This document shows positions 7,750-55,239 of a DNA stretch of 64,000 bases, piece by piece. The stretch comes from Psammoneis japonica. Taxonomy: Eukaryota. Position 1 is the first letter of the stretch. The number at the start of each line of letters is the position of its first letter. The notes under the pieces are model-generated. The model had not been told where the DNA came from and did not search any database. It worked only from the letters and a program-made list of their open reading frames with translations. The stretch covers positions 124,001 through 188,000 of the forward strand of contig QPGO01000004.1 of assembly GCA_008632985.1 (NCBI GenBank), written 5' to 3'. The position numbers were made by a program, and so were the translations under genes.

Positions 7750-9046
7750 TTATCGAAATCCACACTTTTTGATTTCGTTCTGATATTCAAAGGTGGTTCC
7801 GCTTCGAGCGTTGCACTGATAGTTCGTGTTGAGGCTGACAATAAAGTGAAACCAATAGGTTGGCAAGTACATTGCGTCCCCCGCCTGCATGACGACTTCG
7901 TTCACTTGAGCATTGCCAAAGTCGGGAAATTCCTTGAGATCGGGCTTGGACCAATTTACGGCCGAGTGCCGTCCAGACGGATGAGTTTGCGGGAACAGCA
8001 CCATATTTTTGCATTGATTGGGATGTGCCAGTATATACCGACGCTCACCACCCAACAAGACAATAAAATTGCGGCTCTGATCGTAATGCGTTTCTGCAAT
8101 AACACCCTTCATGCCAAATCGCAATTGATCCCACGTTGATCCTTTGGATTCACCATGAAAAATGACGGTTTCTTGGGAGAAAACATGGGCAACTCATTGT
8201 ACATGAATCCACTTTGTCCTTTGTAGGCGGCATTGATTCTCAAATACCAATGCTCGTGTTCTGCTTGGTTGTCATATCGTTCAATCGCTTCTGCCTTTTC
8301 AAGCCACTCCCGTACGAAAGTTTGGTGATCTCCGTTGGTTCCGTCCATCCGGGTGGAAGATTCCTTCGGTTTTTCCAGTACATCATGTGATTGTTCTTAC
8401 TGTATTCCGTCTTGTACTGTTGATGATGCAATAGATCAAACAAATAATGCCCATCGTTTCGATTCCAACGTTCTGAAGTTTGCCATAGGTCTGGATGATT
8501 TTGAATGACAAAAGGCACTTCTGCTTCACGATATCGCAGTGCTTTCTCGTAGTCATTTTCCCAGTCAAATATACAGAGGCCTTGAAAAATCCGTTTTGGT
8601 TCTGGTAGCGATGTATCATCGGGATTCCAGTTTCCAATTACATCCATAACGTTCCAAGCCATGGGGTAACCCTTGGGCGGATCTGCTGGGCAGTTGTGAA
8701 TGTCATACGGCATGCCGGATTGAGTCTGATAGGTATTTCTTCTCAGCCCAGTAACATAATCATGAATGCGCTTTCGATCTGACGGTGGAAACATTGATTC
8801 AAAATCATACTTTAGTCTTTTGAACTTGTCCAATGCCTTTGGATCAACAATTTTAGAGCGGCCATAAGGATCTACCCGGTCATGCACCCCAAGCATTGAC
8901 AGATCGACTTGGGCCGGATTTTCATTTTCCAGCTCATTCAAAGAGTGATGCAAAACAATGCCAGTCAGAATAAAAGTAACAACTGCACACACGATCAATC
9001 GTCCAACGACGACGCTGTTCTTCATGAAGTGCTGCGATGCCGCCAT
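7750..9046 (-). CDS. JmjC/cupin-like 2OG-Fe(II) oxygenase with N-terminal membrane anchor; two apparent frameshifts (~8310, ~8120)
   Basis: Three overlapping ORFs (8240..9046, 8109..8348, 7750..8124) join into one protein; HYD...GERRYILAHP...AGDAMYLPTYWFHFI gives the HxD...H triad; TM segment LIVCAVVTFILTGIVL. Confidence 0.8.
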
Positions 9047-11632: not shown

Positions 11633-11856
11633 CTTGTTTGTTTGTTTGTTTGTTTGTTTGCTTGCTTGCTTGCTTGTTTGTTTGTTTGTTTGTTTGTTTG
11701 TTTGTTTGCTTGTTTGCTTGTTTGCTTGTTTGTTTGCTTGTTTGTTTGCTTGTTTGTTTGCTTGTTTGCTTGCTTGCTTGCTTGCTTGTTTGTTTGTTTG
11801 TTTGTTTGTTTGTTTGTTTGTTTGTTTGTTTGTTTGTTTGTTTGTTTGTTTGTTTG
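11633..11856. repeat. (TTTG)n/(CTTG)n tetranucleotide microsatellite
   Basis: Directly visible ~224 bp tract. Confidence 0.97.
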
Positions 11857-12669
11857 TGTCTGGGGCTGCTGCTGGCACTGCAGAGCTGACATCTTTGTTG
11901 TGGCTGATCCACACAACCAACCCAGCAAGCAGCAGCAGCAGGCTGAGGGCACTGGCGGTCTTTGGCAGATCCCAGCAACGCTCCATGAACTGTGGTTGAG
12001 CGCCAAGCAGCGCAAGAAGGCTGGTGTTGTGCAGCTGTGGTGCCCTGTCTTCCCCTCCCTGCCAGAAGTGACGAGCACTTCAAACTGCAAACTCCAGAAC
12101 AAAAAAACCCATGGCAGTGCCAGCCAACCTGGCAGCAGCAAGCCGAGGGCATTGACAGTCTCTTGTGGACCCCAGGCAATGGTGCGGCAACTGCGGTTGA
12201 GCAGCGCAGCACCTTTTTGTGTGGCTGTGGCCCCACGTCACCATGTCCCAACAGGAGGAGCAAACTTGAAACTTCCTTGCTCCAAAGTGAAAGGACCACA
12301 AGGCAGCGCCAACAAACCCAACACCAGCTGCAAACTGAAGACACTGACGGCATCTGGCTGACCACAGGTGGCACTTTGAGGGTGGTTGTTGGGCACTGCA
12401 AGACTGGTCTTGTGATGTTGTGGCCCCATGTCACCTTGTGGTCACCGCGACTGCAGCCAGCAGACTTGACACCAAAGAAAGCCTGTTGGATGGACAACCT
12501 TTGTTCTGAGCTGCAAGCAGAAATCAAAGGCAGCATTTGTGTGACAAACACACACTTGCGCGACAAACATGGTGCAGGAGCAACACAGGCTCAAATGCAA
12601 GGCAACAGCTTTCTGTTTTTCAGCACCCCCAACAGACCCAACAAGCTGAGTGGAACCCTGGCACTGTGC

Positions 12670-13530
12670 AGCAGCTTTGTCAGCTTTGGCAAATTTGTCA
12701 ACTTTGGCAAGTTTGTTGACTCTGCCAGCTTTGTCAACTTTGGTGAAGAGTTTGGCTGCTTTGCAAACTTTGGTGGCTTTGTCTGCTTTGTCAATTTTGT
12801 CAACTTTGGCGACTTTTGTTGGCTCTGGCAACTCTGGCGAATTTGCCAACTTTGGCAAGTTTGTCAAATCTGTCAGCTTTGGCAAGTTTGTCAACTCTGT
12901 CAGCTTTGGCAATGTTGCCAACTTTGGCGAGTTTGTTGACTTTGAACTTTGGCACCTTTGTCTGCTTTGTGGCAATTTTGTCAACTTTGTCGACTTTGGT
13001 GACTTCGTCAGCTTTGTTGACTTTGGCAAATTTGTCAACTTTGGCAAGTTTGTCAGCTCTGTCAGCTTTGGCAAATTTGGCAAATTTGTCAGCTTTGTCA
13101 ACTTTGGTGACTTTGTCAGCTTTGGCAATTTTGCCAACTTTGTCAGCTTTGGCAACTTTGGCGAATTTGTTGACTTTGGCAAGCTTGTCAACTCTGTCAG
13201 CTTTGGCAACCTTGTCAAGTTTGTCAACTTTGTCAGCTGTGGTGCCAGCTTTGGTCAGTTTGGCGACTTTGCAGACTTTGGTGATTTCATCTTTTTTGGC
13301 AATTTTGTCAACTTGGTGCATTTGTCAGCTTTGTCAACTTTGGCGACTTTCTCACATTTGTCAGCTTGTTTGGGCAACTTTGTCAACTTTGCCAAGTTTG
13401 GCAACCTCGCCAGCTTTGGCAAGTTTGGCAACCTTGTCAAGAACTTTGGTGGTGAGTTTTGGTGACATTTTCAACTTTGGCGACTTTGTCAGCCAAAGGT
13501 GACAAAGTTGCCAAAGCTGACAAAGTGCCA
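12670..13530. repeat. Degenerate 9-bp-unit tandem array (AACTTTGGC / AAGTTTGTC / AGCTTTGTC variants), last units inverted
   Basis: Visible 9-bp periodicity; orientation flips at ~13495. Confidence 0.9.
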
Positions 13531-16500
13531 AAAACAGCCTCTCTCACACCTTTTTTTCTTTTCTTGTTTTCTCCTTTGACAACTGCCCCATCTTTTGTCA
13601 AAGCTGTCTTTTTTTGCTGCTTTCTGTCCACCACAGTTCACCAGCAGCACTTTGTTTTTCCAGCCTGCTCACATTTGTTTTAAACACATTTTCTTGCAAC
13701 ACACATGGCGGTTGATGGCTTGCTCATGTGTGTGCAATTGATGGTGAAAAAGAGATGCAGCGCAGAAGCCCAGCCCAAATCTCCTCATGAGGCTCCTCCT
13801 GTGGCATTGTCCCTGTTGCTGGCCAGTGTGTCAGCTGTTGCTTGTCATGCCATGTCAGGGTTGGGGCAAGGGATGTGGGAGAGGGAAAGAGAGAGACAGG
13901 AGAAACCAGCAGCCAAAATTGGGGTTGTGGGCAGCAGGGCTCACATTGCGCAATTTGTGCTCAGGTGGTGGGTGGGTCAGGTGGTGAGAGGAGAAAATGT
14001 TGCCCTTGATTTTTGTGTCTGTTTGCACTGTTGTTGGGTGATTTAAGTGGGTCTTGTGTTGCACTCATGTTTGGGAAAGTTGGGGGTGGTGTCAAGGGTG
14101 CACAAGTTGCAGAGATGGGCTGAAAGAGCAGCTCTTTAACACGCAAGTGTGTGAGCCACAAGTGTGTCTGAGGAGCCTGTGATCCCTTGGTCACAGCACA
14201 TGTTGTTTTCTTGGACTGGCTGTGCCAAGAGCCAAGTCAATCATTTGGGTGTCCATCAATGCACCGTTTCCTGAATGTGCCATCAAAATCTCCAATTCCT
14301 TTGTTTTGTCATGGCTTTGCTTGACTGCAAGAGCTGCGTCAGCTGTGGCAGCAAATTTCATCTCTTTTTGCTCTTTTCATCATGCGCGATGATTCCTGGT
14401 GCCCATTTTCATGTCATGGGCACTGCTTGTGCTCATGATGATTGTCGCAGTCATTTTGATTGTTGTTGCTGTCATCACTGTTTTGTTTTTGAGCTTTTTT
14501 GAAGACACGCTTTGACATTTTACAACCAGCCATGCTGTGGAGGTGTGTTTGATGTGCAGTTTCTTTTCACTGCAATGCTCTTTGTCAGCTTGCCTTGAGG
14601 GTCTTCTTGGTTGGTTGCCAAGTCATTGTTGCACATTTGTGCTTGTCTTTCAGCTCTGGCTGCTCAAGCCTCCTTTGAGGCAGGCTGTTGGGAAACAGTG
14701 TCATGGCATCTTGGTCTCCAGCTTGCAGCTGCTTGCTGATGGTGCCACCCGTTGTTGGTCACATGAAGCAATGCATGTTCACACTGCTTGTCCACAACTT
14801 CAGGTTGTGGAGTGCCTCTCCATCTTCACCTGCACCCAGCATCAAACATTCAAGACACTGGCGAGCTGCAAAGGACTCTGTTGTGCATGTTTCTGCAAAG
14901 ACAACTCTTCCAGTTGTTTGAGCTCCCAGGGTGTGTGGCCTGAGTGCACCTCAGATTGTTTTCAAGAGAATGAGTTTTGGCTTGGTGAGTTGATGCCAGC
15001 TCTGGATGGTGCTCATTGTGCGGTTGTTCTTGTGTTTTCTGTGGGAATCTCTTTGTTTGCATTGTCAAAGTCCCTGACAGTGTTGCCATGTGCTGAGTTG
15101 CACGCCACATTGAATTTTGCCCATCCTCCTGCTTCACAGGGCTTGTTTTCAATGACTCAGTTTGTCTCTTCCCAAACAGCACCATGCTTCAGGTTTGCTG
15201 TTTTCCGTTCCAGCAGCAAAGCATTTTGTTTCATGTTCAGGGTCATCCTGGAGTGTGCAAGAGTGACAAACTCTGCTTGCTCAATTTTTTGTCTGTTTTT
15301 CAGGGAGAGTTGACCCTTCAACCACCGGACTTTGCTCACTTGCGTCACAAATGACATGGCAAATGAAGCAATTTTCAGAAGATGGGCACGACACTTCACT
15401 CGCGCGATTTTGTTTTGGAGCGCGCATTCGCCAAAAATCTGGGGGAACCCTTTTTGCAATTTAGAAAGTTCAGTGTCAACTTTTGACACCGGGTTTTTTG
15501 CAAGCTTCATCTGTGAATGGAGAGGAGCCAAATCTCAACCTTTGACAATGGAGGTTGCCATGAGCTGCTGTCACAAACAGACAAACAATGCCACACCCTT
15601 GGAGCAAATCTCCGCCGGCGGAGATTTGCTCCCAATTGGCAAATGCGTGTGGCACACTTCACACAAATTGTGCGCCATGTGACATTTTCATGCTGTGCCC
15701 ATCACATTGTTGTTGCTTTGTTTTGTTGCAAGGAGCGCCATCAAAGGCTTGCTTGCCATGCTTGAAATCTGACTGAGTCATCTTTGGCAAATGATTGTGA
15801 GTCATGCTGCTCAAAAGAAATCTTGGATCCTTGCGAGCCATTTCTTGCATGACACACAGAGGTGAGCACATTGCATCAAGTTTGCAGCTGCGCTGTCTGT
15901 CAAAAAGGAATTGGCTCAATGAGAAGTTCATTTTGAAAGGAGAGTCTTTTTGTTGTTGTCAATCATGCAACAAGGAACACATTGGATTGAGGGGTGCACC
16001 ACTGTTGTGAGACACAGCGGATTGATGGCTGAGTTGTTGTTTGGTGTGTGGTGCCCCACACAACAACAAGGCACATGCGGCAGACACACTGGAAAAAGCA
16101 ATGGGCAACTGAGCTGAAGCTCTTTTAAATGAACAAATCAACTCTGAACAAGATGCTGGGCTACAAAACAAAGCACAAATCGACGACCGTTGAAAAATTG
16201 GCTGTCAACCTCAAACAACGACAAGGCGGCACCAGATTTGTGAGACTGACAATGAAGATCCAGCATCAGAACATTGTTTGGAATCTAATTGCAGGGATCA
16301 CCTTGGTTGAACTTTGAAAACTTGTGACACCTGTGAAGAGTGCTGTCACAGGCACAAAATTTTTTGATTTTTGTCAACGGATCTTCTCATTGCAAGAGTG
16401 AAAAGAACATGTTGCACACAGGGGTCTCCAAAGGTTTTTCTTCCATGTTAAATTGTCTGAGCCAACTGGCAATGGCAAACTGTGGCATTGTCATCAATGT

Positions 16501-17156
16501 TGTCAGCAATCAGTTGACCAGTGCTTGGCACCACCAAAAGTCATGGGCCGCTCCTGCATGGACATTCGAGAGCCAGGTGTGGGAGCGATGCTGCTCCAAT
16601 CAAAATGCTCTGTGACCCACATGTTCAAGTCAGACAACTTTATGATTTTAAGCACAAGCTTGCAGCTGGCAAGTGGGGGCTGGGCAGAAGCACGTGAAAG
16701 CCCCAGAAGTTCAGAGAGTGTGGCACACAGCACACACAGAGAGCTGTTTTTCTTCCATCCAGGAGCACACCCGCCCAACTTGTCAGAAGACGGAGTTGCC
16801 CATGACACAATCCTGTGCCCCCCCATGAGTGTGCTGCAAGTTGATTAATTAGAATGACAGAAAAATCTGCGGTCTCCATGCTGAGACGATGGAATGCTGA
16901 TGCATGCGTCGCGGTTGGAAAAATGGGAAGGGGATCGGAACGTCGGTCACATCCGGTCCGAATGACGTCACAGGAATGACTGTTTCCCTGGCATGTGACC
17001 GCGCGACCGCGTCGCTCACTTTTTTCGAGGTTGGATCGGGATTCCAGATTCGGGAGGCATCTTTGGTTGGATCGACGTCGTTGCCAACCTTTGAAGCAGA
17101 GTGGAGTGCTGTGTCCTGGTTGCCGCCCTTTTAAGCAGTTTACGAGGAACTTGTGA

Positions 17157-25200: not shown

Positions 25201-25446
25201 TATCTAATGTGTTTGGAGGGACAGCTCTAGCCGAAGCAATGTGGCATGCACTCAGATTGACACATGCTATCTATTGATAGATCTACTCTACCAGAGTGGC
25301 TCCAATGTGTTTCTCTCTAGATGCTAGATCCATCTACTAGAGCTTGGATGAAGATCCGAATGGTGGAAGTCACGAGACATCGTTCGATCGGTGGAGATTT
25401 TGTCGAGAGAGTATCTTCGTCCTGTGCAAATCTAACAGAATCAGCA

Positions 25447-27082
25447 TTATCTGCAGATAGACTCCCTAGCATCGATTTTGTGCTTTAGAGAGTCACTCCC
25501 AAGAGAGTTTAGACTCAGCTTCTCCAGATCCTTATTCGCATCGCTGCTTAATCGTTCTGCGTATTCGCTGCAGAAGTGCGTTGCTGGTGATCCGTGAACG
25601 CAACAGGGGCAAAAAAGGAATCGAACAGAACCTTTACAGTCCCGGTACCCATCTTTGAAGGTTCTGTTCGGCGATGAATAACCTTTCGATGTCGAATGGA
25701 TAAAGTAGGGGCCTTTGTCTCTTCGGAGCTTGAGTTCCATACCTACATGCCTAAAGTTCAGAGCTGGAATAGCACGGAAACCAAACATCATGTGTGTAGA
25801 ATTGGGCAACTTTGTTATCGGATCGCGGTGGTTCGCTACGCGGAGTACGTATAACTTGCGTTGTTTTTCTATAACCTATGTAGTTGCACAGGCACAAAGC
25901 GTGATTCTTAAACATCGCGTTTCTCGAGTCAAAGGAACAGAGACAATTTGCAATGGTCAGAACTGCAATAGAGCTAGTTCTACCGGACTTACCTCTACAG
26001 CATCGCGAAACGAGTCATTCCCAACCCGTGGAGACGCAAAGTTTAACGAGATCACCGGCAAAGTGATGTGGGGATTCGATGCAGTTGCAGCAGAAAAGAC
26101 AAACAAGGTGCTTAATGCAGCCCCGAGGCTGTGACCGGTTGAAAAGAGGTGGAACCCAGGATTCTCCTTCAATACGCCCTCCACCTCGCTCATAATTTTG
26201 TCAAATTTGCATATCTTTTGGTTCCTGCCTGTGCCGTAGAGGTATTGATGAAAACCAGCGTGAATCTTCAAGCCTTTTTCCATCGAAGCCACAGGGTTCG
26301 GTATGGTTTTCATCGATACATTTGCGTCTATCATCCAATCTTTCGGTGTCACTGAAAGACAATGCATTCACAAAAGTGAGGGAATTTTTTAATCTTACGA
26401 AATAGAGCGCTTCATTCGCAAGAAAGCATGCAAAGAGCTCACCTGATCCGCGAAATGTCACGACGACCCGTTTGTAAAGGCTGAAGGGAATTGAATCAAA
26501 GATCATATGAGACACCCTATCACACCCTTAGGACAAAAAGAACAGCACACATCCAAAATCCCACTCAGAGGGCTTACCGGTCCACTACTATCGAATACAC
26601 ACATTCGCTTTCGTTGTTCTCATCGTCAAACACCGACACTGTAGCTGGCGGTGCTGCACCTCTCGCGAAATCCAATTCCTTTCGTACTGCATCGATACAT
26701 CCCATGTATAATTCAGTCCCCTTTTTACCGAAGAATCGTTTTACTTCATCCTTGTGTTCCTCAAATGCATCGAACGCGAATTGGTCCGCTTTGCCTTCAT
26801 CTATTGAAAGGATTTCTTCTGCGGCGGACTCTCCGAGTTTACCTTTTCGCGCCAACTCCCTCAAGTCAGCAATTGCATATGTGAGGATGGAAGCTATATC
26901 GAGAGTTGAAACAGCAAATGGAAACCGTTTGTGGGCTCTACGCGCAGTGCACCTCAAACCGAGAACACACATCTTGACGTACCTCCAAGCAACAATTTCA
27001 AATCCTTGTACAAAGTATTTTCCGAAAGAGGGATTTCACCAGGCTTTGGAGACCTTTCCACTGCCATTTGCTTTGTCTCCAT
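25447..27082 (-). CDS. Class 3 lipase, multi-exon, copy 1
   Basis: Exons encode METKQMAVERSP..., VYSIVVD, VVVTFRGS, IHAGF, STGHSLGAAL, NFASPRVGN, RVANHRDPI; GT-AG introns. Confidence 0.88.
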
Positions 27083-27421
27083 CAGGGAATCGTCGCCCCC
27101 TGCTGTGTTCTTTGAAGTGCTGAGGTCGTTGTGCGTTTTTTTAGAAGAGACGCAGAACTCTAGCTAAGATAGAGTAGTCTGTCCGTCAGTTTTCTTGATT
27201 GATCGGCCATTGACCCCCGTTGATTAACGGTTTTGATGGCGGAAATGGCCTTCTCGGCTCGAGCTCGGCTTCTCACTAAATCGTTAGCTTTGCCGTGTTG
27301 AGAATGTTGAAGGTGTTTACGTAGAATCGTTCGTAGCCCCTGGTATGTTGGGGGCCCTACGACTGAATGTACTGGGTGGTGTGTGCCGAGGGGCCTCCAT
27401 CATCACAAAAAGAGCAAGAAA

Positions 27422-28886
27422 ATGGCGCGCCCGAAGAAAAAGGCGAGGCACCAGGGAAGGTTTGGTGCCCGAGCCCCTTCCGTATATGATGAAAATGGGC
27501 AAAGGCGTTTTCATGTTGGTCATCAGCATCGACTCCGCATGGTTTCTGATGGTGATGATGTGTGGAGACGCCGAAATGACAGTGACAGACGAAAGGGCAT
27601 GTGGGACTCTATCGTGCATCGTCATGGACGAGAAATGGGATTTTTGAGTCAGGACTCAAGCCCAGAGCTTGAAGAATGTGAGTCATCAAACCCTCTGTTT
27701 CAAGAAACGAGGGTGCGTGTAAACTCCATCCAGCACAAGCCCAAGAAATGCGCGGCTCGGGCCACGACCCAGAGCAATTTCGAGTGCTTTTTGAAGGCAA
27801 AATTCCCGAATGATCCACACACGCAGCATCTGAATGGATTGCTCCAAAAAACAGAGGATCGTCATATGAACCCATCAGTTGTTCTAATGAGACAGAAGTT
27901 GGAGCCACCGCGAGAAGAAAGTCTCATTCTGTCTTGCACGAAGTGCTTGCGAGACGGGGCTCCTGTTGGCAGGAGTTTGAAGCACGGAATGACATCCCTT
28001 GAGCTCAATTTATTGTCATGTACATTGATTAAGTTTTCACACTCGAAGGGTCTGAATTGCACTGCTGAGATTAAAAGGTGTTGGAGTCATGTGAGGAGGA
28101 GGATGATGTTGCTCGTGCTGAAGCTTTTGATCTCAAGGTTTTTCTGCCCAAGGCTTGGGATCAGCTCTGGCGACAAACTCCAGGCCTTTCTCACACAAAA
28201 AAAAGGTTCGCATTTGGTTGAGACTGCTTGGTCAGCTCTCTGTCATTGGGCATGCATCAGATGTGTCTGAGCACTGTCCTTTGGTGTCTAAGACAACTCT
28301 GCCTCCTGGGTCGTCGACTGCAAATTGGCTAAAGGATGGGACGCCTTGGCACTTGGACATTTCTTTTGTCGACTGGAAGGGCAGGAAAGCAACAAACGTC
28401 GGGAATCCACACCACATTCGAATTTGTCATAATCCAAAAAACTTGAAATATGACCCAGTGACTTGGATGCTTAAGGAACGGCGTTGTCGTGGTGAAGTCG
28501 AAACAAGGAAGCCGGACGCTCCAGCATTTTTTTTCGTTTCGGAGCAAACTTGGAACAAGCAGCTCAAGAGGTGCATTTGCAAGCCACTGGGACTGTCACA
28601 CACGTCCCACAGCATTCGCCGCTCGGCCGCTCAGTGGGCTTCTCGTTGCGGTGCCAACATTGCCGTTGTTCGAAACGTTGGTCGATGGGAGTGTCTGGCG
28701 GAATTACTTGAGTGCGTCGCCAAGGGAAACAAACGGAATCGTCTTGCGAGTGAAGACGACGAAGACCCAATTTTTAAGTTTTGGCCGTTCTTTCCCAAAA
28801 CGTCCGTGACGGCCTTGGCCACCACCACAGAACAAGCCAATGCAATGCAGTCAAGGGCGCCAACGGTCCGTTTCAACCAGTTTTAA
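27422..28886 (+). pseudogene. Tyrosine recombinase (Crypton/DIRS-type YR), left arm, frameshifted and hypermutated
   Basis: Joined ORFs 27383..28270 and 28155..28886: MARPKKKAR (NLS-like)...IG[H]ASD...WKGRK...HSIRRSAAQWA...VGRW...LLE[C]V, matching R..K..HxxR..W..Y once CGT>CAT and TAC>TGC are reverted. Confidence 0.8.
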
Positions 28887-30041
28887 AAACAACAGCAGTC
28901 ATTCTCATGTTGAACTCTTGTCTTTTTTTGAAACTAGAGGCAGTCGCTCTGCTGTTGTCAGTTTTGTCTTGACATGACTGATGCAAGTCTCGCACGACTG
29001 ATGTCAGTCTCATGCCAGAAGTTGACACAAAGCTGTTTTGGACATCTGCCACTCGTCGGCTTTCTTGATTCGCCGAGTCGCCCGTAGAATGATTGTTGTG
29101 CTGGTTGGACGCAAGCTTCTCCCAGTCTGGATTTTGAATCTGAGCTTCAGTCTTCAGCTCGCTACATTTTGACAACATTTCTGCCTGCTTGAGATTGATC
29201 TCATGTGGCAGTGTTCCAAGTTTCTTAATCGTCCAATGAGCTTTTCGGCACTGTGCAAGCTTCGAGTCACCGCCAAGATTGTGCCTCTTGAGTTCAGCAG
29301 ACGACCACAGGTGGATTGGAGAATGCACTTGATTTCTTGTTTCATCTGCAACCTTTTCTTCATGTGCACGGACCACTGCAGTGGCATGTGTCTCCTCTTC
29401 TGTTTTAAAATGCAACTTTGAAACAAAATTCTTGTTCCCCCCACCTTGTGGTAGAGTCAATGTCGACGGAGGCAACCGCTTGCCAAGTGGTGCTGAGTCC
29501 GGCACTTGTTCTTGCCGGGGAGGAGCTGGCAGGCAAGAAGGATCCATCACATGATTTGCCTGCACCTGGCGAAACCCATGACAAATCATTTCATCTCTCA
29601 TGGCTTCTGTTGAAACAGAAAACAATTCGTCAGTGAATGGATTTGCAAAAAACAACGCATCTTTGAAAAGAGCGACTTGCTCCAACACAATCGGCCGTGT
29701 AGACTGATTGGTCACTCCGGCCCCAGCAACGGCACCACACTCGTTGATGCCACATTTTGTCAAATGGCACTCGGCATCCCTTTCAAAGGAGTCCAGGTTG
29801 AACTCCCCAAATTCCTTGTCCCAATCCCTTGTTGCTGACATCGTGTCGAACAACTCTTCAACAGTTTGTGACGGTGGATGGGGGCAAATCGAAGCCATCT
29901 CGCCATCAGAGTCTCCAGCTTTGGCATCATTGGCCATGTTGTCAGCCATGTCGAGGGCTTGATTCACATCTGACGAGTCTAAAAACGGCGACGTGACACA
30001 TGAAAATGCAGCTCGTCATCATCGTTCTTTTGAGAAATCAT
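28873..30041 (-). pseudogene. ORF2 of the YR element (unknown protein, ~390 aa), left arm, convergent with YR
   Basis: 364 aa ORF 28873..29967; probable upstream ATG at 30041 separated by an indel; mirrored at 30393..31560. Confidence 0.6.
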
Positions 30042-30392
30042 CAGCTGGAGCTCGGAGGGAGAGGTGGGGTTTCCCGTGTTGACCGGGGGTTCGAGTCTCG
30101 TTGATCACCGCAGACGCTCCGCAGGTGCCTGCACTGGAGGTTTCGTTCATCGAGGCCCTCGATCAATGATCGACCCACAGAAAGCTGCCTCCACAGCTGG
30201 CAGGTCACGCTTGCACCCCCTGCGCACTGCTCTGTTGGTTCAGAGGTGGCTTTCTGCGGGTCGATCATTGATCGAGGGCCTCGATCAACGAAGCCTCCAG
30301 TGCAGGCACCTGCGGAGCATCTGCGGTGATCAACAAGACTTGAACCCCCGATCAACGTGGGAAACCCCACCTCTCCCTCTGAGCTCCAGCTG

Positions 30393-31560
30393 ATGATTTC
30401 TCAAAAGAACAATGATGACGAGCNTGCATTTTCATGCGTCGTGTCACCGTTTTTGGACTTGTCAGATGTGAATCAAGCCCTCAACATGGCTGACAACATG
30501 GCCGATGATGCCGAAGCCGGAGACTCTAATGGCGAGATGGCTTCGATTCACCCCCATCCAGTCACAAACTGTTGAAGAGTCATTCGACGCGACATCAGCA
30601 ACAAGGGATTGGGACAAGGAATTTGGGGAGTTCAACCCGGACTCCTTTGAAAGGGATGCCGAGTGCCATTTGACAAAATGTGGCATCAACGAGTGTGGTG
30701 CAGTTGCTGGGGCCGGAGTGACCAATCAGTCTACACGGCCAATTGCATTGGAGCAAGTCGCTCTTTTCAAAGATGTGTCACCTTTTGCGAATCCATTCAC
30801 TGACGAATTGTTTTCTGTTTCAACAGAAGCCATGAGAGACGAAATGATTCGTCGTGGGTTTTGCCAGGTGCAGGTGAATCATGTGATGGATCCTTCTTGC
30901 CTGCCAGCTCCTCCCCGGCAAGAACAAGTGCCGGATTCAGCACCACTTGGCAAGCGGTTGCCTCCGTCGACGTTGACTCTACCACAAGGTGGGGGGAATA
31001 AGAATTTTGTTCCAAAGCTACATTTTAAAACAGAAGAGGAGACACATGCCACTGCAGTGGTCCGTGCACATGAAGAAAAGGTTGCAGATGAAACAAGAAA
31101 TCAAGTGCATTCTCCAATCCACCTGTGGTCATCTGCTGAACTCAAGAGGCACAATCTCGGCGGTGACGCGAAGCTTGCGCAGTGCCGAAAAGCTCATTGG
31201 ACAATTAAGAAACTTGGAACACTGCCACATGAGATCAATCTCAAGCAGGCAGAAATGTTGTCAAAATGTAGCGAGCTGAAGACTGAAGCTCAGATTCAAA
31301 ATCCAGACTGGGAGAAGCTTGCATCCAACCAGTGCAACAATCATTCTGCGGGCAACTCGGCGAATCAAGAAAGCCGACGAGTGGCAGATGTCTAAAATGG
31401 CTTTACGTTAACTTCCAGTGTGAGACTGACATTGGTCACATGAGACTTGCACCAGTCATGTCAAGACAAAACTGACAACAGCAAAGCGACTGCCTCCAGT
31501 TTCAAAAAAAGCTGAGAATTCAATGTAAGAATGACTGCTGTCATTTTTTAAACTAGTTGA
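30393..31560 (+). pseudogene. ORF2 of the YR element, right arm (frameshift ~30560, premature stop 31395)
   Basis: ORFs 30357..30575 and 30505..31395 nearly identical to 28873..29967. Confidence 0.6.
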
Positions 31561-33007
31561 AACGGACCATTGGTGCCCTTGACCGCATTGCATTGGCTTG
31601 TTCTGTGGTGGTGGCCAAGGCCGTCACGGACGTTTTGGGAAAGAACGGCCAAAACTTAAAAATTGGGTCTTCGTCGTCTTCACTCGCAAGACGATTCCGT
31701 TCATTTCCCTCGGCGACGCACTCAAGTAATTCCGCTAGACACTCCCATCGACCAACGTTTCGAACAACGGCAACATCGGCACCGCAACAAGAAGCCCACT
31801 AAGCAGCCGAGTGGTGAATGCTGTGGGACGTGTGTGACAGTCCCAGTGGCTTGCAAATGCACCTCTTGAGCTGCTTGTTCCAAGTTTGCTCCGAAACAAA
31901 AAAAAATGCTGGAGCATCCGGCTTCCTTGTTTCGACTTCACCACGACAACGCCATTCCTTAAGTGTCCAAGTCACTGGGTCGCATTTCAAGTTTTTTGGA
32001 TTATGACAAATTCGAATGTGGTGTGGATTCCCGACATTTGTTGCTTTCCTGCCCTTCCAGTTGACAAAAGAAATGTCCAAGCACCGAGGCGTCCCATCCT
32101 TTGGCCAATTTGCAGTTGATGACCTAGGAGGCAGAGTTGTCTTGGACACCAAAGGACAGTGCTCAGACACATCTGATGCATGCCCAACAACAGAGAGCTG
32201 GCCAAGTAGCCTCGACCAAATGCGAACCTTTTTCGTGCAAGAAAGGCCTGGAGTTTGTCACCAGAGCTGATCCCAAGCCTTGGGCAGAAAAACCTCGAGA
32301 TCAAAAGCTTCAGCGCGAGCAACATCATCCTCCTCCTCATGTGATTCCAACACCTTTTTAATCTCAGCAGTGTGATTCAGACCCTTTGAGTGTGAAAACT
32401 CAATCAATGCACATGACAACAAATTGAGCTCGAGGGATGTCATTCCATGCTTCAAACTCCCACCAATGGGAACCCCGTCTCGCAAGTGCTTCGTGTGAGA
32501 CAGAATGAGACTTTCTCGCAGTGGCTCCAACTTCTGTCTCATTAGAACAACTGATGGGTTCACATGACGATCCTCTGTTTTTTGGAGCAATCCATTCAGA
32601 TGCTGCGTGTGTGGATCATTTGGGAATTTCGCCTTCAAAAAGCACTCGAAATTGCTCTGGGTCGTGGCCCGAGCCGCACATTTCTTGGGCTTGTGCTGGA
32701 TGGAGTTCACATGCACCCTCGTTTCTTGAAACAGAGGGTTTGATGACTCACATTCTTCAAGCTCTGGGCTTGAGTCCTGACTCAAAAATCCTGTTTCTCG
32801 TCCATGACGATGCACGATAGAGCCCCACATGCCCTTTCGTCTGTCACTGTCATTTCGGAGTCTCCACACATCATTGCCATCAGAAACCATGCGGAGTCGA
32901 TGCTGATGACCAACATAAAAACGCCTTTGCCCATTTTCATCATGTGCGGAAGGGGCTCGGGCACCAAACCTTCCCTGGTGCCTCGCCTTTTTCTTCGGGC
33001 GCGCCAT
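31548..33007 (-). pseudogene. Tyrosine recombinase, right arm, disrupted
   Basis: ORFs 32258..33046 and 31799..32170 mirror the left-arm YR; HSIRR has become HSIHH; internal stops. Confidence 0.78.
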
Positions 33008-33879
33008 TTTCTTGCTCTTTTTGTGACGATGGAGGCCCCTCGGCACACACCACCCAGTGCATTCAGTCGCAGGGCCCCCAACATGCCAGGGGCTGTGAAC
33101 GATTCTACGTGAACACCTTCAACATTCTCAATGGCAAAGCCAACGATTTAGTGAGAAGCCGAGCTCGAGCCGAGAAGGCCATTTCCGCCATCAAAACCGT
33201 TAATCAACGGGGGTCAATGGCCGATCAATCAAGAAAACTGACAGACAGACTGCTCCATCTTAGCCAGAGAGAGGGCCTCTGCTCTGGAGGCAAAAAAAGG
33301 GTTCAGGGGGGGAGGTGGGGCTCCCCAGTTTATTTGTCTGGCAAGATGGGTTATGAGCCACTAGGAGGTGCCACGTAGGAGCAGTCTCCAGCACGCACTC
33401 AGCAGCACGTGGCACGGACCACGACGAGAGCATGGTGCACAGAGCACGGTCACAGTGCACGCAAACTGCAATGAAGATGCCATCCATTGCAAGAAGATGC
33501 CATTGAACAAACACACCATGGAAGATGATGCGCCTGCTGCGGATGAGTCTTTTCTCTCCTGAGGAACTTGTTCAATGAGAACCAAACAAGAGTTCTCAGA
33601 CAAGATCGCACACTCTCTCTCTTTCTTGCATGCAGCAAAAGGCCTGTCTGGGTGCCTGGCCAGAGCAGACTGCAGTTTGATGTGTGCAATGGATTGCATG
33701 ATGATGGTTCAACCTAGACTGGTGCCATGCTGTAGAGGGCATAATCCCCAGGTTTGACAGGCAGTGTGATGCATTCCAAAAACTGGGCCCCCACTTTTTT
33801 GTCGGGGGGGGGGTCCCTTTTTGTTGCGAAGTGCTCCCCCCACAGCTCTGTGTCAGAGGAAGCCACCAATCGAGCCAAG

Positions 33880-35575
33880 CTGCACTTGTTTTGCGCCATG
33901 CCATGCCACAAGTGCAGGTGTGAAGTGCCGCGGGACTACAAACATGCCTTGGCCCTTGATGAGCACAATGGCAGCCACAAGTGGGGAGATGCAACAGACC
34001 TCAAGATGACTCAACTGGGCAAGTGCAAAGTCTTCCATGATTGTGGGCACTGCAAGGACTCTGGCACCCCACCAGCAGGGCACAAGAAGATTTGGGCGCA
34101 CCTTGTCTGCGATGTCAAACATGACGGCAGGCACGAAGCATGGCTGTTTGCTGATGGGCACCTCACAGACATGCCCGCAGACAGTGTCCATTCTGGTGCA
34201 GCATCCCTCCCTGGCCTCCGACTGATGATCTTCCCAGCTGAGCTCAATGAGCTGCTGGAGACATGGGCAGCCAATGCTGGCAATTCCCGCCTCGAAGCCA
34301 CAGCCAAGGAGAAACTGCACATCATTGCAGGTCCCGAATTTTTAGATTTGGAAGGACACACCCTTGTCATCCACAAGGCTCTGCATGGTCTCTGCAGCTC
34401 TGGCCTCAGGTGGCATGAGCATTTTGCCAATTGTCTGCGAGCTGAAGGGCTCTTCCCACACTGTGCCAAACCCGACATCTGGTTGCACTGGAATGGTGAC
34501 CACCATTGTGATCATGTGGCAGCACATGCAGACGACCTGGCCTTTGCCATGAAAGATCCCCAGGTCTTTGTCTGCAATCTCATGGAGAAACGCAAGCTCA
34601 AGCTCAAGGGCACTGGACCACTGGAGTTTCACCTTGGTTGCAACTTCTCTTGCAACTCCGATGGCACATTGTGCCTTGCTCCTTGCAAGCATGTTGAATG
34701 CATGGTTGAGAATTGCGCGTGCCTTTTTGAGGAGAATCCTTGTGCTGATGTGCTGCCCCCTCTCAAAAAGGGAGACTGCCCCAAGCTCAACACCTTCAAA
34801 GAACTGCTGGAACCCGATGGCAGCATCCTCTTCAACTTCAGTCCTCAGTTGGTTCCCTGCAATGGGCTGCATTGCTTGGTCACATTGACATCACTGTGGC
34901 TGTCATGTCTCTCTCTCTCTTTCTGGCTTCCACATGGCACCCTGTCAAGGCCATCTGGACCATGCCAAATGGTGTCTGTGGACACTTGTCCAAGATGTGA
35001 CATGGTGCCCTGTGTGTGCACACCACTGAGGAACCTGATGTGGAGGAATTGATTCCCAAAGATGTGCCCAAGCCTCTTGGCAAGTTTGTCACCAGCATGA
35101 CTCACTGTGCTGTGATTTGAGCTTGTTCCATTGCATGCTCGCTGGACGTTCCGTCACAGCAGGCATCACTCATTTCCTCAACAAGTTTCTGGCTGATCAG
35201 TTCTCCCAAGAAACAAGCCAAGGTTGAGACTGCAACTTGTAGATCTGAGTTTGTTGCTGCCAGGACATGTGTTGAACAGATCATCAATCTGCACATCACA
35301 TTGCATTGCCTTGGCATCCTCATCTGTGGCACATGTTGCATGTTTGGGGACAACAAGTTTTTGTTGTGGACAGTGCCACCATCCTGCACTCCAAGTTGCA
35401 CAACAAGCAACAACCACCTTCTCATTCCATTGTGCGCATGAGGTGATTGCCTCTGGTTTCCTTGAGTTTCACTTTGTCAAAGGTTTTCCTGCAACCATGC
35501 TGACACCCTCAGCAAACACTGGGGTCACTCCCAGCCAGGTTTGGAACCTTCTCTGTCCCCTCATGTTTTGGAGCT
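33880..35575 (+). mobile_element. Ty1/copia LTR-retrotransposon relic (reverse transcriptase + RNase H), hypermutated
   Basis: PRDYKHALALD..KW, HLVCDVKHDGRHEAWLFADGHLT, KALHGLCSSG, VAAHADDL (from YVDD); downstream KKQAKVETAT.SEFVAARTCVEQ, MFGDNK, HEVIASG, ADTLSKHWG. No LTR recognised. Confidence 0.92.
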
Positions 35576-36495
35576 TCAATCCTGAGGCCTTCAGTCAATC
35601 CAACTTTGAAGCTGTTGCTGTGGACTCCTCAAGCAAAACTGTGGAATGACAGGATTTAAACAAGATTTTAGTTTGTCGCGCACAATTGTGTGTGCTCTTG
35701 GCTCCACATGCAACTTTTGATGCAGTTTTCTTTTGAGCCACTTGGCTCACAAGAACAATGGCAGCATTGCCAACATTGCTCAACCCCAGTCTTTTGGTTC
35801 CTGCAATGGTCTCTGCACAGAGATTCATCTGCCATTTAGACAGCAGAAAGGAGTCATTGGTTTCTTCCACCCATTTCCTCTTCAATTCTGTGAGGGAGGT
35901 TGCACACTGCAATGTTGTGATCATTTGACAAACAGCCAAAAGATGCAAAATGTCTTTTGAAATGTTGGTGGGAACCAATGACTGGGTTTGCTTCACCGAT
36001 GACATCCAAGCCAGCAAACTTCAACTTTTTTTGCTGTTGTTGATGAAAAGCAAGGCTGGGGCTCAGCAGCTGGCAGCATGATTTTTTGATGACCACAGAC
36101 CACCTTGAGGAGTTTGTCCAACTGATCAGGGTGAGTTTGTTCATCTGACCAGGGTGTGACTGCAAATGTTGGAATTGGTGTTGTGACAGAGAGAGAAGAA
36201 AGCAACAAGCAAAGTGCGCCATCAGATTTGTCGAAAGCTGCCAGCAGCTGCACATGCCAAAAATCACAGCAGACAGCAACACAAGCTTTTTGATTTGAGA
36301 TTGAGTGACACACATTTTGTCACACAAATGGGTGCATAAAAACAAGCACCACAATGATGAGAAAGAGCACAGCAGCAGCACGATGCTGGCTCTCTCTGGC
36401 AATGTTCCACAGCCACGGTGCGCGCACTGACATGCCATGTCATGAAAGAGGGGCCTCAAGGATGGGAGCAGATGAAGAAGAAAGTCACAAAAAAA

Positions 36496-36727
36496 AAGGC
36501 TTGCAGAGATTCTCTGGATTCAAATTGTCAATCGGATGGACAGAAATTCCAGAAGAAGAGGGGCACAACACTGTGAAAAAAGCAAGGTCAACCTCACAGG
36601 GGAAACAGGACAAGAACAACAAACAGTTCACTCATGTCACGCCGTTCAAGGACAATGTTGGGGAACCAGAAAAGGAGACAGAAAAGGAGAGCAGCACCAA
36701 CACAGAAGGCTTGCAGAGATTCTCTGG
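36496..36727. repeat. 22-bp direct repeat AAGGCTTGCAGAGATTCTCTGG, two copies 210 bp apart
   Basis: Copies at 36496-36517 and 36706-36727; each contains the inverted repeat CAGAGA-T-TCTCTG. Confidence 0.85.
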
Positions 36728-37283
36728 GTCCAACACATGAATCCGGCAAGAGGTTGAAGGCACAAAGTCGACGCTGTGCCAGATCAAGCCAGACAAATGG
36801 AGGAACTCGGGGTGCCAGTGGTCACATGTTTGACTGCATGAACAGACAGTTGGAAAAGGGTGATTTTTCTGTGTGGAAGACTCATTTTGTAACTGATCCC
36901 ATGTTGCCAACTGCCTGCCAGGAACAATGAGGAGGATTGCTTGCGGGTCGGCCTGCCTCGTCTCGTCGTCCGTCGTCTGTCCTCCAAGAGCCTGGCTGCC
37001 GATCAAGCACTGAGATCCTTTTCATTGTGCTTTGCCTGTCGTTGTCTTGGCTGCTGAGAGGTAGGGCCCTAACTATCTAGTTGAAGGGATGTCTCTAGCC
37101 GAAGCAATACGGCATGTACTGAGATTGATACATGATGTCTCTATTGATAGCTCTAATCTACCAGTAAAGATCCCTCTAGGGCAAGGATCAAGATCCGAAT
37201 AGTAGTCACGAGCACGTCATTCGATCGATGGAGATTTCGTCGAGAGAGTTCCTTTGTCCTGTGCAAATCTAGCTGAATCAGCA

Positions 37284-38906
37284 TTATCTGCAGATAGACT
37301 CCCTAGCATCGATGTTGTGCTTTAGAGCGTCACTCCCAAGAGAGTTCAGACTCATCTTCTCCAGATCCTTATTCGCATTGCTGCTTAATCGTTCTGCGTA
37401 TTCACTGCAGAAGTGCATTGGTGGATATCCATGAACGAAACAAGGACAAATAAGACATCGAAAAGAACCTTTACAGTCCCGGTACGCATCTTTGAAGGTC
37501 CTATTCGGTGATGAGTAACCTTTCGATGTCGAATGGATGAAGTAGGGGCCTTTGTCTCTTCGGAGCTTGAGTTCCATACCTACATGTCTAAAGTTTAGAG
37601 CTGGAATTGCGCGGAAACCAAACATCATTTGTGTAGAATTGGGCAACTTTGTTACCGGATCGCGGTGGTTCGCTACTCGAAGAACGTATAACTTGCGTTG
37701 TTTTTCTAGAACCTGTGTAGTTGCACAGGCAGAAGCGTGATTCTTAAACATCGTGTTTCTCAAGTCAAAGGAGCAGAGACAATTTGCAACTGTCAGAACT
37801 ACAATAGAGCTAGGCCCTAGTTCTGCTTGACTTACCTCTACAGCATCACGAAACGAGTCATTCCCAACCCGTGGAGACGCAAAATTTAACGAGATCACCG
37901 GCAAAGTGATGTGGGGATTCGACGCAGTTGCTGCTGAAAAGGCAAAAAGAGTGCTCAAAGCAGCCCCGAGGCTGTGACCGGTTGAAAACAGGTGGAACCC
38001 AGGATTCTCCTTCAATACGCCCTCCACCTCGCTCATAATTTTGTCAAATTTGCATATCTTTTGGTTCCTGTCTGTGCCATAGAGGTACTGATGAAAACCA
38101 GCGTGAATCTTCAAGCCTTTTTTTATTGAAGGCACAGGGTTTGGCATGGTTTTCATCGATACAGTTGCGACTATCATCCAATCTTTCGGTGTCACTGAAA
38201 GACAATGCATTCACAAAAGTGAGGGAATTTTTTATTTTACGAAATAGAGCGCTTCATTCGCAAGAAAGCATGCAAAGAGCTCACCTGATCCACGAAATGT
38301 CACGACAACCCGTTTGTAAAGACTGAAGGGAATCAACTCAAAGATCATTTAGGACAAAAAGAACAGCACACATCCAAAATCCCACTCAGACAGGGCTCAC
38401 CGGTCCACTACAATCGAATACACACATCCGCTTTCGTTGTTCTCATCGTCAAACACCGACATTGTAGCTGGCGGTGCTGAACCTCTTGCAAAATCCATTT
38501 CCTTTCGTATTTCATCGATACATCCCATGTACAATTCAGTGCCCTTTTCACCGAAGAATCGTTTTACTGCATCCTTGTGTTCCTCAAATGCATCGAACGC
38601 GAATTGGTCCGCTTTGCCTTCATCTGTTGACAGGATTTCTTCTGCGGCGGACTCTCCGAGTTTGCCTGTTCGCGCCAACTCCCTCAAGCCAGCAATTGCA
38701 TATGTCAGGATGGAAGCTATATCGAGAGTTGAAACAGCAAATGGAAACCGTTTTGTGGGCTCTACACGCAGTGCACCTCAAACCAAGAACACACATCTTG
38801 ACGTACCTCCAAGCAGCAGTTTCAAATCCTTGTACAAAGTATTATCCGAAATGGGGATTTCACGAGGCTTTGGAGACCTCTCCACTGCCATTTGCTTTGT
38901 CTCCAT
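37284..38906 (-). CDS. Class 3 lipase, multi-exon, copy 2 (recent duplicate of copy 1)
   Basis: Same exon structure and GHSLG motif; introns and 3' flank (from ~37093) align with 25224-27110. Confidence 0.88.
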
Positions 38907-39225
38907 CAGGGAATGGTCGACTCCTGCTGTGTTGCCGACGTTGTAGAGTAATTATTACTGTATGCCGCGTAGCGCGAAGCGATGGAATGCCGAAATGAAA
39001 AGAGATTTCCCGCGCGTCTGTCCTCTGTCCGCTAGGTTATTGAGTACCGGGCCAGTACAAGTAGACTACCAGTATGCATACGGTACAAGAGCATAATCTG
39101 CAATCTGCAATGCGGATTATTTTTTCTACTACAAGCTAAATTTCGAACATCAAGGCTAGTAAAGGCACTTGTCTTTAGCAAGAATAATCTCAACAAAGAG
39201 TAGCATGGTATCTCTAAACGATGCT

Positions 39226-40798
39226 TTACCTACAATTCGATTCCTTCAAATTGATTTCCCTTTTGTGCGAGTCGTTCCAAAGATGGCTGAGTTTAAGTGA
39301 TTCCAGTTTCTTTGAAGCTTTGTTCAAACGTTTTAGGTACGTCGCACAGAAGTGCAAACCAGGAGATCCGTGAACAAAGCAGCTCGATGCATCTCTGACG
39401 TTATGACCCATGTCTTTGAAGAATGTAGATATGGGTAAGTAACCCCTGGATGTTGAATGGATAAAAGCGGTTTGCCCCCCTTTCTTCAGTTTCAACTCCA
39501 AACCTGCATGCCGATAATTACGTGACTTAAGTAGCCGAACGCCACAGAAAGCAGTTCCAGAGTTGGGCATTGTCGTAACTGGATCACGGTGATTTGCTAC
39601 TCGGAGTAAGTACAACTTGCGCTGCTTTTCAAGAACCTGTCTCAGCGCACAGCAGACTTGTCAGTTCCTGTGTGACAAGTGGTGTAGCGATGCGATATCA
39701 TTCTTTGTGGTCGTTTCTCACTCACCTCCACAGCATCGCGAAAGACATCGTTACCGACCCGAGGTGAAGCAAAGTTAACAGCCACCACGGGTTCTGGTAT
39801 GATTGGATTCGACGCGGTTGCTGCTGAAAAGGCAAAAAGAGTGCTCAAAGCAGCCCCGAGAGAGTGCCCTGTCGACCAGAGTCGAAATCCAGGATTTTCA
39901 TTTAATAACTCTGTCGCCTCGCTCATAATTTTGTCGAATGTACTTTTCTCTTGGTGGTGATGCTTTTTGTAGAGGTAGTTGTAAAAGCCAGTATGTATGT
40001 TCAAGTGCTTCCTTTCTACAGACTCTACTGGGTTCGGAAGATGCTTCATGGATGAGTCTGCATCGATCAGCCAGTCCCTTGGTGTCACTAAGAAATAAGG
40101 TCAGAGTTGAAAAACAAAGTCCTACTCGCCCAAGGCACTCTTCACGTTCGACTCACCTGATCCACGAAATATAACCACAACCCGTTTTAATTGCCTAGCA
40201 AGAAGTGCATCATAAGTGCAACGTGAGATGCAATAACAACTAATCCGATAGCCCGCCAACAAAAAGTAAATCACTCACTTATCAACCCCAATCGCATACA
40301 CACATCCACTTTCATTGTGCTCATCGTCGATCACTCCTCTCGTGAATGGTGGAGTCCCGCCTTGCTCAAAATTCAATTCTTTTTGCACATCTTCAATACA
40401 TCCCAAGTATGTTTCAGTCCCCTTTTCACCGAAATTCTTGATAATGGCTTGTCTGTTTGCTTGAAAGGCGTCGAAAAGGTAAGGGTCCTTTTCTCCGTAC
40501 TCATCAGAGAGAATATCTTTTTCAAGTTGAGCATCACCCAGTTTTCCTTTTCTCGCCAACTCTCTGAGTTGAGTAACTCCGTAGATCCAAACAGATCCTA
40601 TGGAAAAAATGCAGAGCGAAAATTTCGATTGAAGATATCATGGAATGTTAGGGAAATAACAATGTTTGGCCCAGACTGACGTTTAATCAACTCCAAACTA
40701 ACGAACTGCGCTGGTATCTTACCCGCGAGAAGAAGTTTCAAATCCTTAAACAAGGAATGATCGGAAACAGGGCCCGCTTCTTCTTCTTTGTTTGGCAT
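39226..40798 (-). CDS. Class 3 lipase, multi-exon, copy 3 (more diverged)
   Basis: MPNKEEEAG...LFKDLKLLLAG, VYAIGVD, IHTGF, STGHSLGAAL, NFASPRVGN, RVANHRDPV; equivalent intron positions. Confidence 0.86.
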
Positions 40799-54804: not shown

Positions 54805-55239
54805 CGAAAACATGAAGGATTCGCTGGGTAAGGACTCTCTCCCTCTCTAGTATTACAAAACAATTATAGTTAAGTATCAGGCTTTGACGGATGAAGTCAA
54901 ATTAAGTTACAACGAAGTACTCTTCAGCCAAGATCTGTCTTGTTGTGGCATGGTATTTGTAGCTTCCTGATTGTGATCGGTCGCTCGTCGCGGTATCGTC
55001 GCTCCGGATTGAGCCAGCATTGGGCTTCGCGGCCGGAATCGCGGCGGCAGATTTATTGGAAATCCGTGTCTTCCCCCCTTTCACCACTGCAGCAGCAAAA
55101 TTAAGATCGGCCACAACAACGGCGGCCGCCGGCGCTTCGAACAGGACAGCTTCATCATTTATGGAGTTCGAGCTCAGACATGCTCATCATGGAGCTGGCC
55201 ATTAAAAAGCCAGCTCCTGTGGGAGGGAGGGTCTTTTAG

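Follow-up and report, generated by a model that had tools for sequence, protein, structure and literature searches.

The window analysed here, a stretch of 64,000 nucleotides from contig QPGO01000004.1 of Psammoneis japonica (positions 124,001 to 188,000 of the forward strand), carries a near-perfect palindrome of 6.1 kb (27158-33269) and, next to it, the remnant of a Copia retrotransposon, which together form a 10 kb transposon cluster situated between copies 1 and 2 of a lipase gene. Our subject is the loss of TpA and CpG dinucleotides from this cluster, and from further blocks of the window, by transitions to TpG or CpA. The palindrome consists of seven collinear inverted-repeat segments with 89-96% identity, and its two arms, ~3.05 kb each, flank a 51-nt spacer (30192-30242); the sole N of the window, at 30424, lies in the right arm near the palindrome centre. 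The class-3 lipase gene is present in three tandem copies (25225-27157, 37093-38990 and 39578-40433), of which the first two are 93% identical. A purine/pyrimidine-coded self-comparison of the window for diverged copies recovered the palindrome and the lipase duplicates only. The features on which the argument draws are the following:

27158-30191, forward strand: left palindrome arm, probably one copy of a dead, presumably Crypton-like tyrosine-recombinase element (inverted-repeat pairs I1-I7, arm alignment)
30192-30242, no strand: non-palindromic central spacer of 51 nt (gap between the arms of repeat pair I3)
30243-33269, reverse strand: right palindrome arm, the inverted copy (inverted-repeat pairs, arm alignment)
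27422-28883, forward strand: left-arm recombinase gene, split by a frameshift (first frame 27422-28270, following frame 28131-28883)
31555-33007, reverse strand: right-arm recombinase gene with two in-frame stops (homologue alignment)
28873-29949, reverse strand: second open reading frame (ORF) of the recombinase element, 358 amino acids (mirror copy at 30505-31395, forward strand)
33808-35574, forward strand: Copia retrotransposon, 5'-truncated, reverse transcriptase and RNase H part, hypermutated (Pfam, homologues, phmmer)
9000-17130, no strand: block B1, TA-poor and CG-poor, including short-period tandem arrays (composition)
33270-37060, no strand: block B2, TA-poor and CG-poor, the Copia remnant plus flanks (composition)
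55000-64000, no strand: block B3, TA-poor and CG-poor, extending past the window end (composition)
25225-27157, no strand given: lipase gene copy 1, the internal control with an ordinary substitution spectrum (duplicate alignment with copy 2)
37093-38990, no strand given: lipase gene copy 2 (Pfam Lipase_3 on 37284-38210)

Each arm of the palindrome codes for a frameshifted protein ending in HSIRRSAAQWASRCGA...RNVGRW and, on the opposite strand, for the second ORF. The former has 14 database homologues (E-values of 1e-40 to 2e-5), none of them named, and matched no Pfam family; its HSIRR box and GRW motif align with these 14 homologues, and the alignment as a whole looks like that of a tyrosine recombinase, of an element that we take to be of the Crypton type. 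The 358-residue product of the second ORF matched no Pfam family and gave no usable match in the ESM Atlas.

The initial annotation of this stretch had used the two arms as an internal control, quoting a 50-nt string from each, and both strings are present (27329-27378, and 33051-33100 in reverse complement). It had proposed two context-specific transition processes, converting TpA and CpG to TpG or CpA, and this is borne out when the arms are aligned and their differences tabulated by context: these are enriched at TA and CG, and A to G changes are rare outside TpA. The global alignment has 3073 columns with 190 mismatches and 34 gap columns, and the mismatches divide into 181 transitions and 9 transversions. 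Scored by the pyrimidine of each pair, 165 of these 181 transitions fall in pyrimidine-purine (YpR) steps, where composition leads one to expect 46% (binomial P 4e-38), and the differences in these steps set CG or TA in one arm against CA or TG in the other. Counted as aligned dinucleotides, CG is kept in both arms 102 times and faces TG or CA 69 times, TA is kept in both arms 15 times and faces TG or CA 35 times, TG faces CA 30 times, and CG never faces TA. The lipase duplicates (25300-27157 versus 37137-38990, 1788 columns, 92.9% identity), whose divergence is similar to that of the arms, served as a control. They differ by 76 transitions, of which 42 lie in YpR steps without context enrichment, and by 51 transversions, and the palindrome is distinct from them in both its transition to transversion ratio (Fisher P 3e-15) and the context of its transitions (P 3e-10). 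Once the YpR events are set aside, the palindrome retains 16 transitions and 8-9 transversions, a ratio resembling that of the lipase control.

Under a homogeneous two-copy model each arm would have lost a fraction 0.54 of its TpA and 0.25 of its CpG, with a rate ratio of ~2.7, from an ancestor with ~70 TA and ~183 CG per arm, which is close to background frequencies. By arithmetic from the arm counts and this model, TpA has been hit ~80 times and CpG ~29 times as often per base as transitions outside YpR steps. These figures bear on one of the candidates put forward in the initial annotation, error-prone repair by a polymerase-eta-like enzyme with its bias from WA to WG (W being A or T). A to G change at TpA matches half of this motif, but the ApA half is spared: differences of the AA/AG class (A versus G after an A, read as TT/CT on the other strand) occur at 8 sites against ~490 AA plus TT per arm, while more than half of the ~70 TpA per arm have been lost, so that A to G is not equally frequent outside TpA and the hit rate of ApA is lower by a factor of 60 or more. 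Transversions, moreover, are nearly absent (9/190), and we disfavour a polymerase-eta-like enzyme as very improbable.

The events are strand-symmetric in the arms, with 17 changes of TA to TG and 18 to CA. Among the candidates that we rejected is ADAR editing of double-stranded RNA that becomes fixed via an RNA intermediate, as both strands are equally hit, and this in a DNA transposon. The distribution of events along the arms is less even: in the outer 1.1 kb (27158-28300 versus 32127-33269) TA was lost 17 times from the right arm and twice from the left. A runs test of which arm was hit gives weak results, with P 0.017 for all 104 events and P 0.08 for TA alone. The outer right arm adjoins the Copia block and the outer left arm adjoins a gene; further in (28300-29500) the balance of TA losses flips, to 10 in the left arm and 4 in the right.

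As two copies cannot polarise their own differences, the arms alone give no direction, which has to come from outgroup proteins and composition. Nor does a TG/CA pair necessarily imply an ancestral TA, since an ancestral CG hit on opposite strands yields the same pair; the agcTGcc/agcCAcc pair near the palindrome centre is indeed present (~30186), but it cannot be polarised and does not prove a former TA. For the Copia remnant we aligned the reverse transcriptase ORF with 20 homologues, excluding one relative that is itself mutated (P0150), and defined a column as conserved when 12 or more homologues covered it and 70% or more of these agreed, which yielded 172 columns. None of the 12 conserved Tyr columns keeps its residue, eight having become His (CAY), two Cys (TGY), one Arg (CGC) and one Phe, compared with 105 of 160 other conserved columns that are kept (P 6e-6). 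The YxDD motif has thereby become H-A-D-D, its His being encoded by CAT at 34525-34527, and Val has changed to Ala three times via GCA. Changes of the CpG type in the same ORF comprise Asp to Asn four times (cAAY), Glu to Lys twice (cAAG), and Arg to Trp, Cys and His. Across the whole ORF, Tyr makes up 0.2%, Cys 7.3% and His 7.3% of residues, against medians of 4.3, 1.4 and 3.5 in 150 homologues. Three of these 150 database relatives (P0150, P0204 and P0218), located on other contigs, lack Tyr altogether (0%), and Cys and His each account for 5-9% of their residues. P0150 shows nine Cys and three His at the 12 conserved Tyr columns, where the window copy has eight His and two Cys, a contrast that suggests copy-specific strand bias or mutation in bursts.

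The recombinase homologues polarise a second set of changes. All 14 homologues share the catalytic Tyr, for which both arms have Cys (TGC at 28713-28715 in the left and at 31718-31720 in the right); another conserved Tyr reads CAC in either arm, and a Phe/Tyr column retains TAT in one arm and has TGC in the other. At an aromatic column (left-arm 28374-28376) CAC stands against TGC, a TG/CA pair that the homologues polarise to Tyr. In the right arm three sites of invariant Arg have changed, two to His and one to Cys. Taken together, the polarised sites amount to four changes from TA to CA or TG and six from CG to CA or TG, the latter at invariant or majority residues.

On the evidence of these sequences, the direction of the TpA change is from TA to CA or TG; the same polarity, opposite to that of fungal repeat-induced point mutation (RIP), had been proposed in the initial annotation, and both the turnover of conserved Tyr to His or Cys and the depletion of TpA support it. 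The reverse, a RIP-like change of C to T at CpA that created TpA in one copy, could draw on the inability of two copies to polarise and on one real change of CAG to TAG. It would, however, require an ancestor with an observed/expected (O/E) ratio for TpA of 0.08, which is impossible for a coding element, and it is contradicted by a 3- to 50-fold depletion of TpA where enrichment would be expected and by conserved Tyr codons that turned into CAY or TGY. Block composition, the Copia Tyr columns and the recombinase polarisation refute it, and we accord it next to no probability. The destroyed catalytic residues likewise refute, for the Copia remnant and the recombinase element, selection against UpA and CpG in transposon RNA in the manner of RNA viruses in place of mutation. 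Cytoplasmic RNAs are known to be depleted in CpG and UpA together, according to the available part of one report (PMC3829696); against this stand the loss of the YxDD and recombinase Tyr residues, the presence of stops and frameshifts, a Crypton-like element that has no RNA replication step, and block margins that are non-coding. We consider such selection hardly credible as a cause.

The composition of the window extends the pattern beyond the arms. The O/E ratio of TpA is 0.16-0.20 in the arms and ~0.55 in the genic DNA of the window, where CpG is near 1.0, and it falls to 0.01-0.07 in three blocks at ~10-16, 34-36 and 56-64 kb, in which CpG stands at 0.03-0.28 and CA+TG at 1.8-1.96. The depletion of TpA with excess of CA+TG is clustered over stretches of 3.8 to at least 9 kb; one of the three blocks bears the Copia remnant, and the near-saturation of TpA loss that had been postulated for mobile DNA is supported. 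The edges of the blocks are sharp for TA, whose density shifts within ~200 bp, and 500-bp windows have no skew between CA and TG except in the tandem array at 11501-12000, which speaks against a coordination of events by strand such as RIP shows. The two dinucleotides are not lost in step: TA-free margins with dense CpG are found at 9000-9197, 16850-17132 and 36890-37062, and the balance of the losses varies by block, with TA at 0.01-0.03 and CG at 0.20-0.28 in 10-16 kb, and TA at 0.06-0.07 and CG at 0.03-0.09 in 56-64 kb. Because TA-free margins keep their CpG and the ratio of TA to CG loss differs between blocks, we read the losses of TpA and CpG as two processes with different footprints, although the old blocks may simply be at equilibrium. 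The same observations argue against a single bifunctional deaminase that attacks A in TpA as well as C in CpG, with CpG loss independent of 5-methylcytosine. For such an enzyme speaks the sharing of blocks by both losses, together with a preprint on the alga Bigelowiella natans that cites, in its available part, ADAT2 enzymes acting on both A and C in DNA (10.64898/2026.01.13.699255); the B. natans process itself is described there without a C to T component. On balance we think one bifunctional enzyme rather improbable.

The flanking context of TpA bears on a further candidate. Of the 78 TpA left over in the three blocks, 23 lie in TTAA, whose background share is 0.04 (P 3e-14), while ATAT and GTAC are absent and ATAC occurs once. 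In the arms, the 3' neighbour is A at 15 of 30 surviving strand-targets against 8 of 35 changed ones (P 0.037). From these counts of survivors and arm contexts it follows that TAY (Y being a pyrimidine) is lost fastest and TAA slowest. One explanation for which this matters invokes a JBP/TET-like enzyme that would oxidise the thymine of TpA, giving 5-hydroxymethyl- or 5-formyl-uracil; mispairing with G, or error-prone repair, would then yield T to C on either strand. T to C and A to G are indistinguishable in double-stranded DNA, the events are strand-symmetric, 5-formyluracil is mutagenic, and dinoflagellates place 5-hydroxymethyluracil at TpA. Nothing in the window bears on thymine modification, however, and the slower loss of TAA than of TAY has no known link to thymine oxidation, whereas U-A-C is native to TadA; we therefore regard modified thymine as unlikely. 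The available part of a study of TadA reports recognition of UACG, with the A after U and before C (PMC13170351), and this native UAC context fits the faster loss of TAY than of TAA.

We also considered whether the pattern could be produced by errors of base calling or assembly at modified bases, a possibility raised in the initial annotation and to which the unrecorded sequencing platform lends some substance. A deposited run from the same organism contains 70% of the 31-mers sampled from 26500-36400, and its contigs have 1 mismatch to the adjacent genes in ~4 kb, while at a normal density of TA plus CG miscalls would be expected to break nearly every 31-mer. The amino-acid changes in the arms, furthermore, are coherent, and P0150, P0204 and P0218 on other contigs are equally devoid of Tyr. 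We judge an artefact most improbable, although this run may be the assembly's own data. Read depth in the run is ~60 over genes, rises to 220-375 over the palindrome and reaches as much as 14,000 over the Copia remnant, and the other copies that it contains differ mainly by transitions. A further run, X2, covers genes only, skips intron-like gaps and does not reach into 27672-36999; possibly it consists of transcript data, and it is uninformative on expression.

In light of the above, the joint explanation that we favour, with a probability of roughly 0.7, is that dead transposons beside the lipase genes record two strand-symmetric processes acting at the level of DNA, the palindrome consisting of a pair of inverted copies of a Crypton-like tyrosine-recombinase transposon that was inactive beforehand. 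The changes, of the spectrum, context and polarity described, are confined to the two identified transposons and spare the neighbouring gene duplicate. The first process would turn TpA into TpG or CpA (A:T to G:C), fastest at TAY and slowest at TAA, and adenine deamination is its likeliest mechanism: a TadA/ADAT-type deaminase, recruited to silent chromatin, would convert adenine in DNA to hypoxanthine. The second would turn CpG into TpG or CpA by ordinary decay of methylated CpG, and both would be confined to mobile or non-genic DNA. We infer the enzymatic nature of the adenine deamination, its targeting by chromatin and the route of CpG loss through methylation. The first process would be of the same kind as that seen in a mutation-accumulation experiment in B. 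natans.

The statement in the initial annotation that no such system had been described is out of date in view of this experiment (Mettrop et al., bioRxiv 10.64898/2026.01.13.699255), which we cite from the part of the preprint available. There, an integrated giant virus and a virophage accounted for 231 of the 302 point mutations scored in the nucleus, at ~6e-7 per site per generation in the viral insertions and in some lines only (10.64898/2026.01.13.699255). All but one of the mutations in viral regions were A to G or T to C, every one of these was at TpA, and the de novo rate, ongoing and episodic, exceeded the genome average ~1000-fold; the authors proposed an ADAT2-like DNA adenine deaminase (10.64898/2026.01.13.699255). 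The window shares with this case A:T to G:C change at TpA that gives TpG or CpA according to strand, restricted to foreign DNA with host genes spared, and the long-term signature reported for B. natans, clustered TpA depletion with CpA/TpG enrichment, is seen here. The two differ in that B. natans is a chlorarachniophyte (Rhizaria) and the present host a diatom, that its viral insertions still contain 3.3% TpA in the text available whereas the transposons here are near saturation, that de novo rates were measured there whereas those of the window are relative and come from the arm comparison, and that in the window CpG to TpG/CpA change accompanies the loss of TpA, probably as a separate process. 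The main text of the preprint, as available, contains no mention of CpG, flanking context or diatoms. The diatom identity of the host, presumed in the initial annotation, agrees with a 1491-residue protein of the window with AMP-binding, carrier and hexapeptide regions, whose named relatives are all from diatoms (Seminavis, Mayamaea, Stephanodiscus, Nitzschia, Pseudo-nitzschia, Cylindrotheca and Epithemia) at 50-62% identity. The window accordingly belongs to a diatom, one without proteins of its own in the database searched, and not to Bigelowiella. A literature search, with subscription journals outside its scope, found such a natural process described in the B. natans preprint only and in no diatom; the available text of a preprint on diatom transposons does not mention one, and that of a further article (PMC2806351) has 'transitions' in an unrelated sense and one remark on CpG methylation. 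There is thus a precedent, the same kind of process having been first reported in 2026, as far as the available text goes, in an unrelated alga, and what is new here is the diatom host, the near-saturated transposon targets, the separate footprint of CpG decay and the relative resistance of TTAA.

Several points weigh against the explanation we favour. The arms have 30 discordant TG/CA pairs where the model expects ~16 (~10 from TA and ~6 from CG), which implies that rates differ between sites. Tyr codons are all TAY, and a rule based on the 3' neighbour predicts mostly Cys from them, whereas the window copy has His and Cys in a ratio of 8:2; set beside the 9:3 in favour of Cys in P0150, this indicates that the context rule is incomplete. 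At least two recombinase changes run in the reverse direction, CAG to TAG, which creates a right-arm stop, and TGG to CGG. Blocks B1 and B3 have no recognisable mobile-element protein in the Pfam and phmmer scans: Pfam returned no family for 38 ORFs of the three blocks, and 10 full-length Copia polyproteins, compared with all six frames by phmmer, matched only at 33808-35574. The mobile or foreign nature of B1 and B3 is an assumption, as is the polarity of TA loss within them. The single supporting run may derive from the data of the assembly itself, its platform being unrecorded, and the deaminase step is a candidate mechanism. Finally, the absence of a CpG component from the B. natans report, in its available part, may mean that the two cases are different systems.

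Comparison with other known systems places the two components further. Fungal RIP likewise hypermutates repeated mobile DNA by transitions alone, at one kind of dinucleotide, and thereby disables it, but by changing C to T at CpA it creates TpA, which in the window is destroyed, and the 1.8 kb tandem duplication of the lipase gene, at 93% identity, is untouched, so that duplication alone is seemingly no trigger. Weaker and word-specific is the depletion of CTAG by very-short-patch repair in Escherichia coli, in which a TA word gives way to CA or TG words as a by-product of T:G mismatch repair; this would protect CpG, which the window loses. Decay of methylated CpG is matched by the 69 arm differences of CG against TG or CA, by the CpG O/E of 0.03-0.28 in the blocks, and by the changes of Arg to His, Cys or Trp and of Asp to Asn after C in the window elements, but it covers only part of the signal, as the loss of TpA is more rapid and has a somewhat broader footprint. 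In Phaeodactylum tricornutum, DNMT5a-dependent methylation controls young transposons according to the available part of the study (PMC9998398), so that decay of methylated CpG is the conventional explanation of the CG component. TadA/ADAT enzymes and ADAR convert A to I beside a 5' U, a preference noted for ADAR in the discussion of the B. natans preprint as available (10.64898/2026.01.13.699255); their natural substrates are RNA, whereas in the window a DNA transposon was changed in place and on both strands.

If the TpA process of the diatom is that of the chlorarachniophyte, it reaches beyond one species and would be a second RIP-like mutational genome defence in eukaryotes, of opposite polarity to RIP and in a major group of marine algae. 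More tentatively, and with rather less than even confidence, we conjecture that diatoms possess a chromatin-targeted, TpA-specific defence by DNA adenine deamination that is homologous to that proposed for B. natans, widespread in the SAR (stramenopile, alveolate and Rhizaria) group and independent of CpG methylation, and that, preferring TAY over TAA, would erase all Tyr codons and TAA/TAG stops from transposons within a short evolutionary time. Knock-outs are feasible in some diatoms, by the part of the Phaeodactylum work available (PMC9998398), and if the signature is present there the enzyme could be found; a natural DNA adenine deaminase, if real, would be of interest to base editing. The process also hides transposons from protein-domain searches and inflates estimates of transposon age based on divergence, and by removing TAA and TAG it leaves long spurious ORFs on both strands that are a possible trap for gene predictors.

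Among 80 related Copia loci from metagenomes, which were chosen by best protein match and so biased against mutated copies, the O/E of TpA is 0.33-0.98, against 0.01-0.07 in the three blocks of the window, and none is strongly TA-depleted. The lowest values are those of L051 (0.33), L073 (0.33) and L078 (0.43, with CpG at 0.23), which may be partly mutated copies from environmental diatoms. In the window itself, blocks B1-B3 are devoid of TAA and TAG, with TGA as their only stop, and have overlapping ORFs of 110-330 residues on both strands. The margin at 54994-55250 is also free or nearly free of TA with dense CpG, and that at 16850-17132, with 26 CG and no TA, lies just upstream of the start of a GH1 gene at 17190. 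The tandem arrays of B1 (11582-11917 and 12646-13400) have periods of 8, 9 and 12 bp, with units such as CTTTGGCAA and GTTTGTCAA; they contain long ORFs on both strands, and the stretch 11501-12000 has a strong skew of TG over CA.

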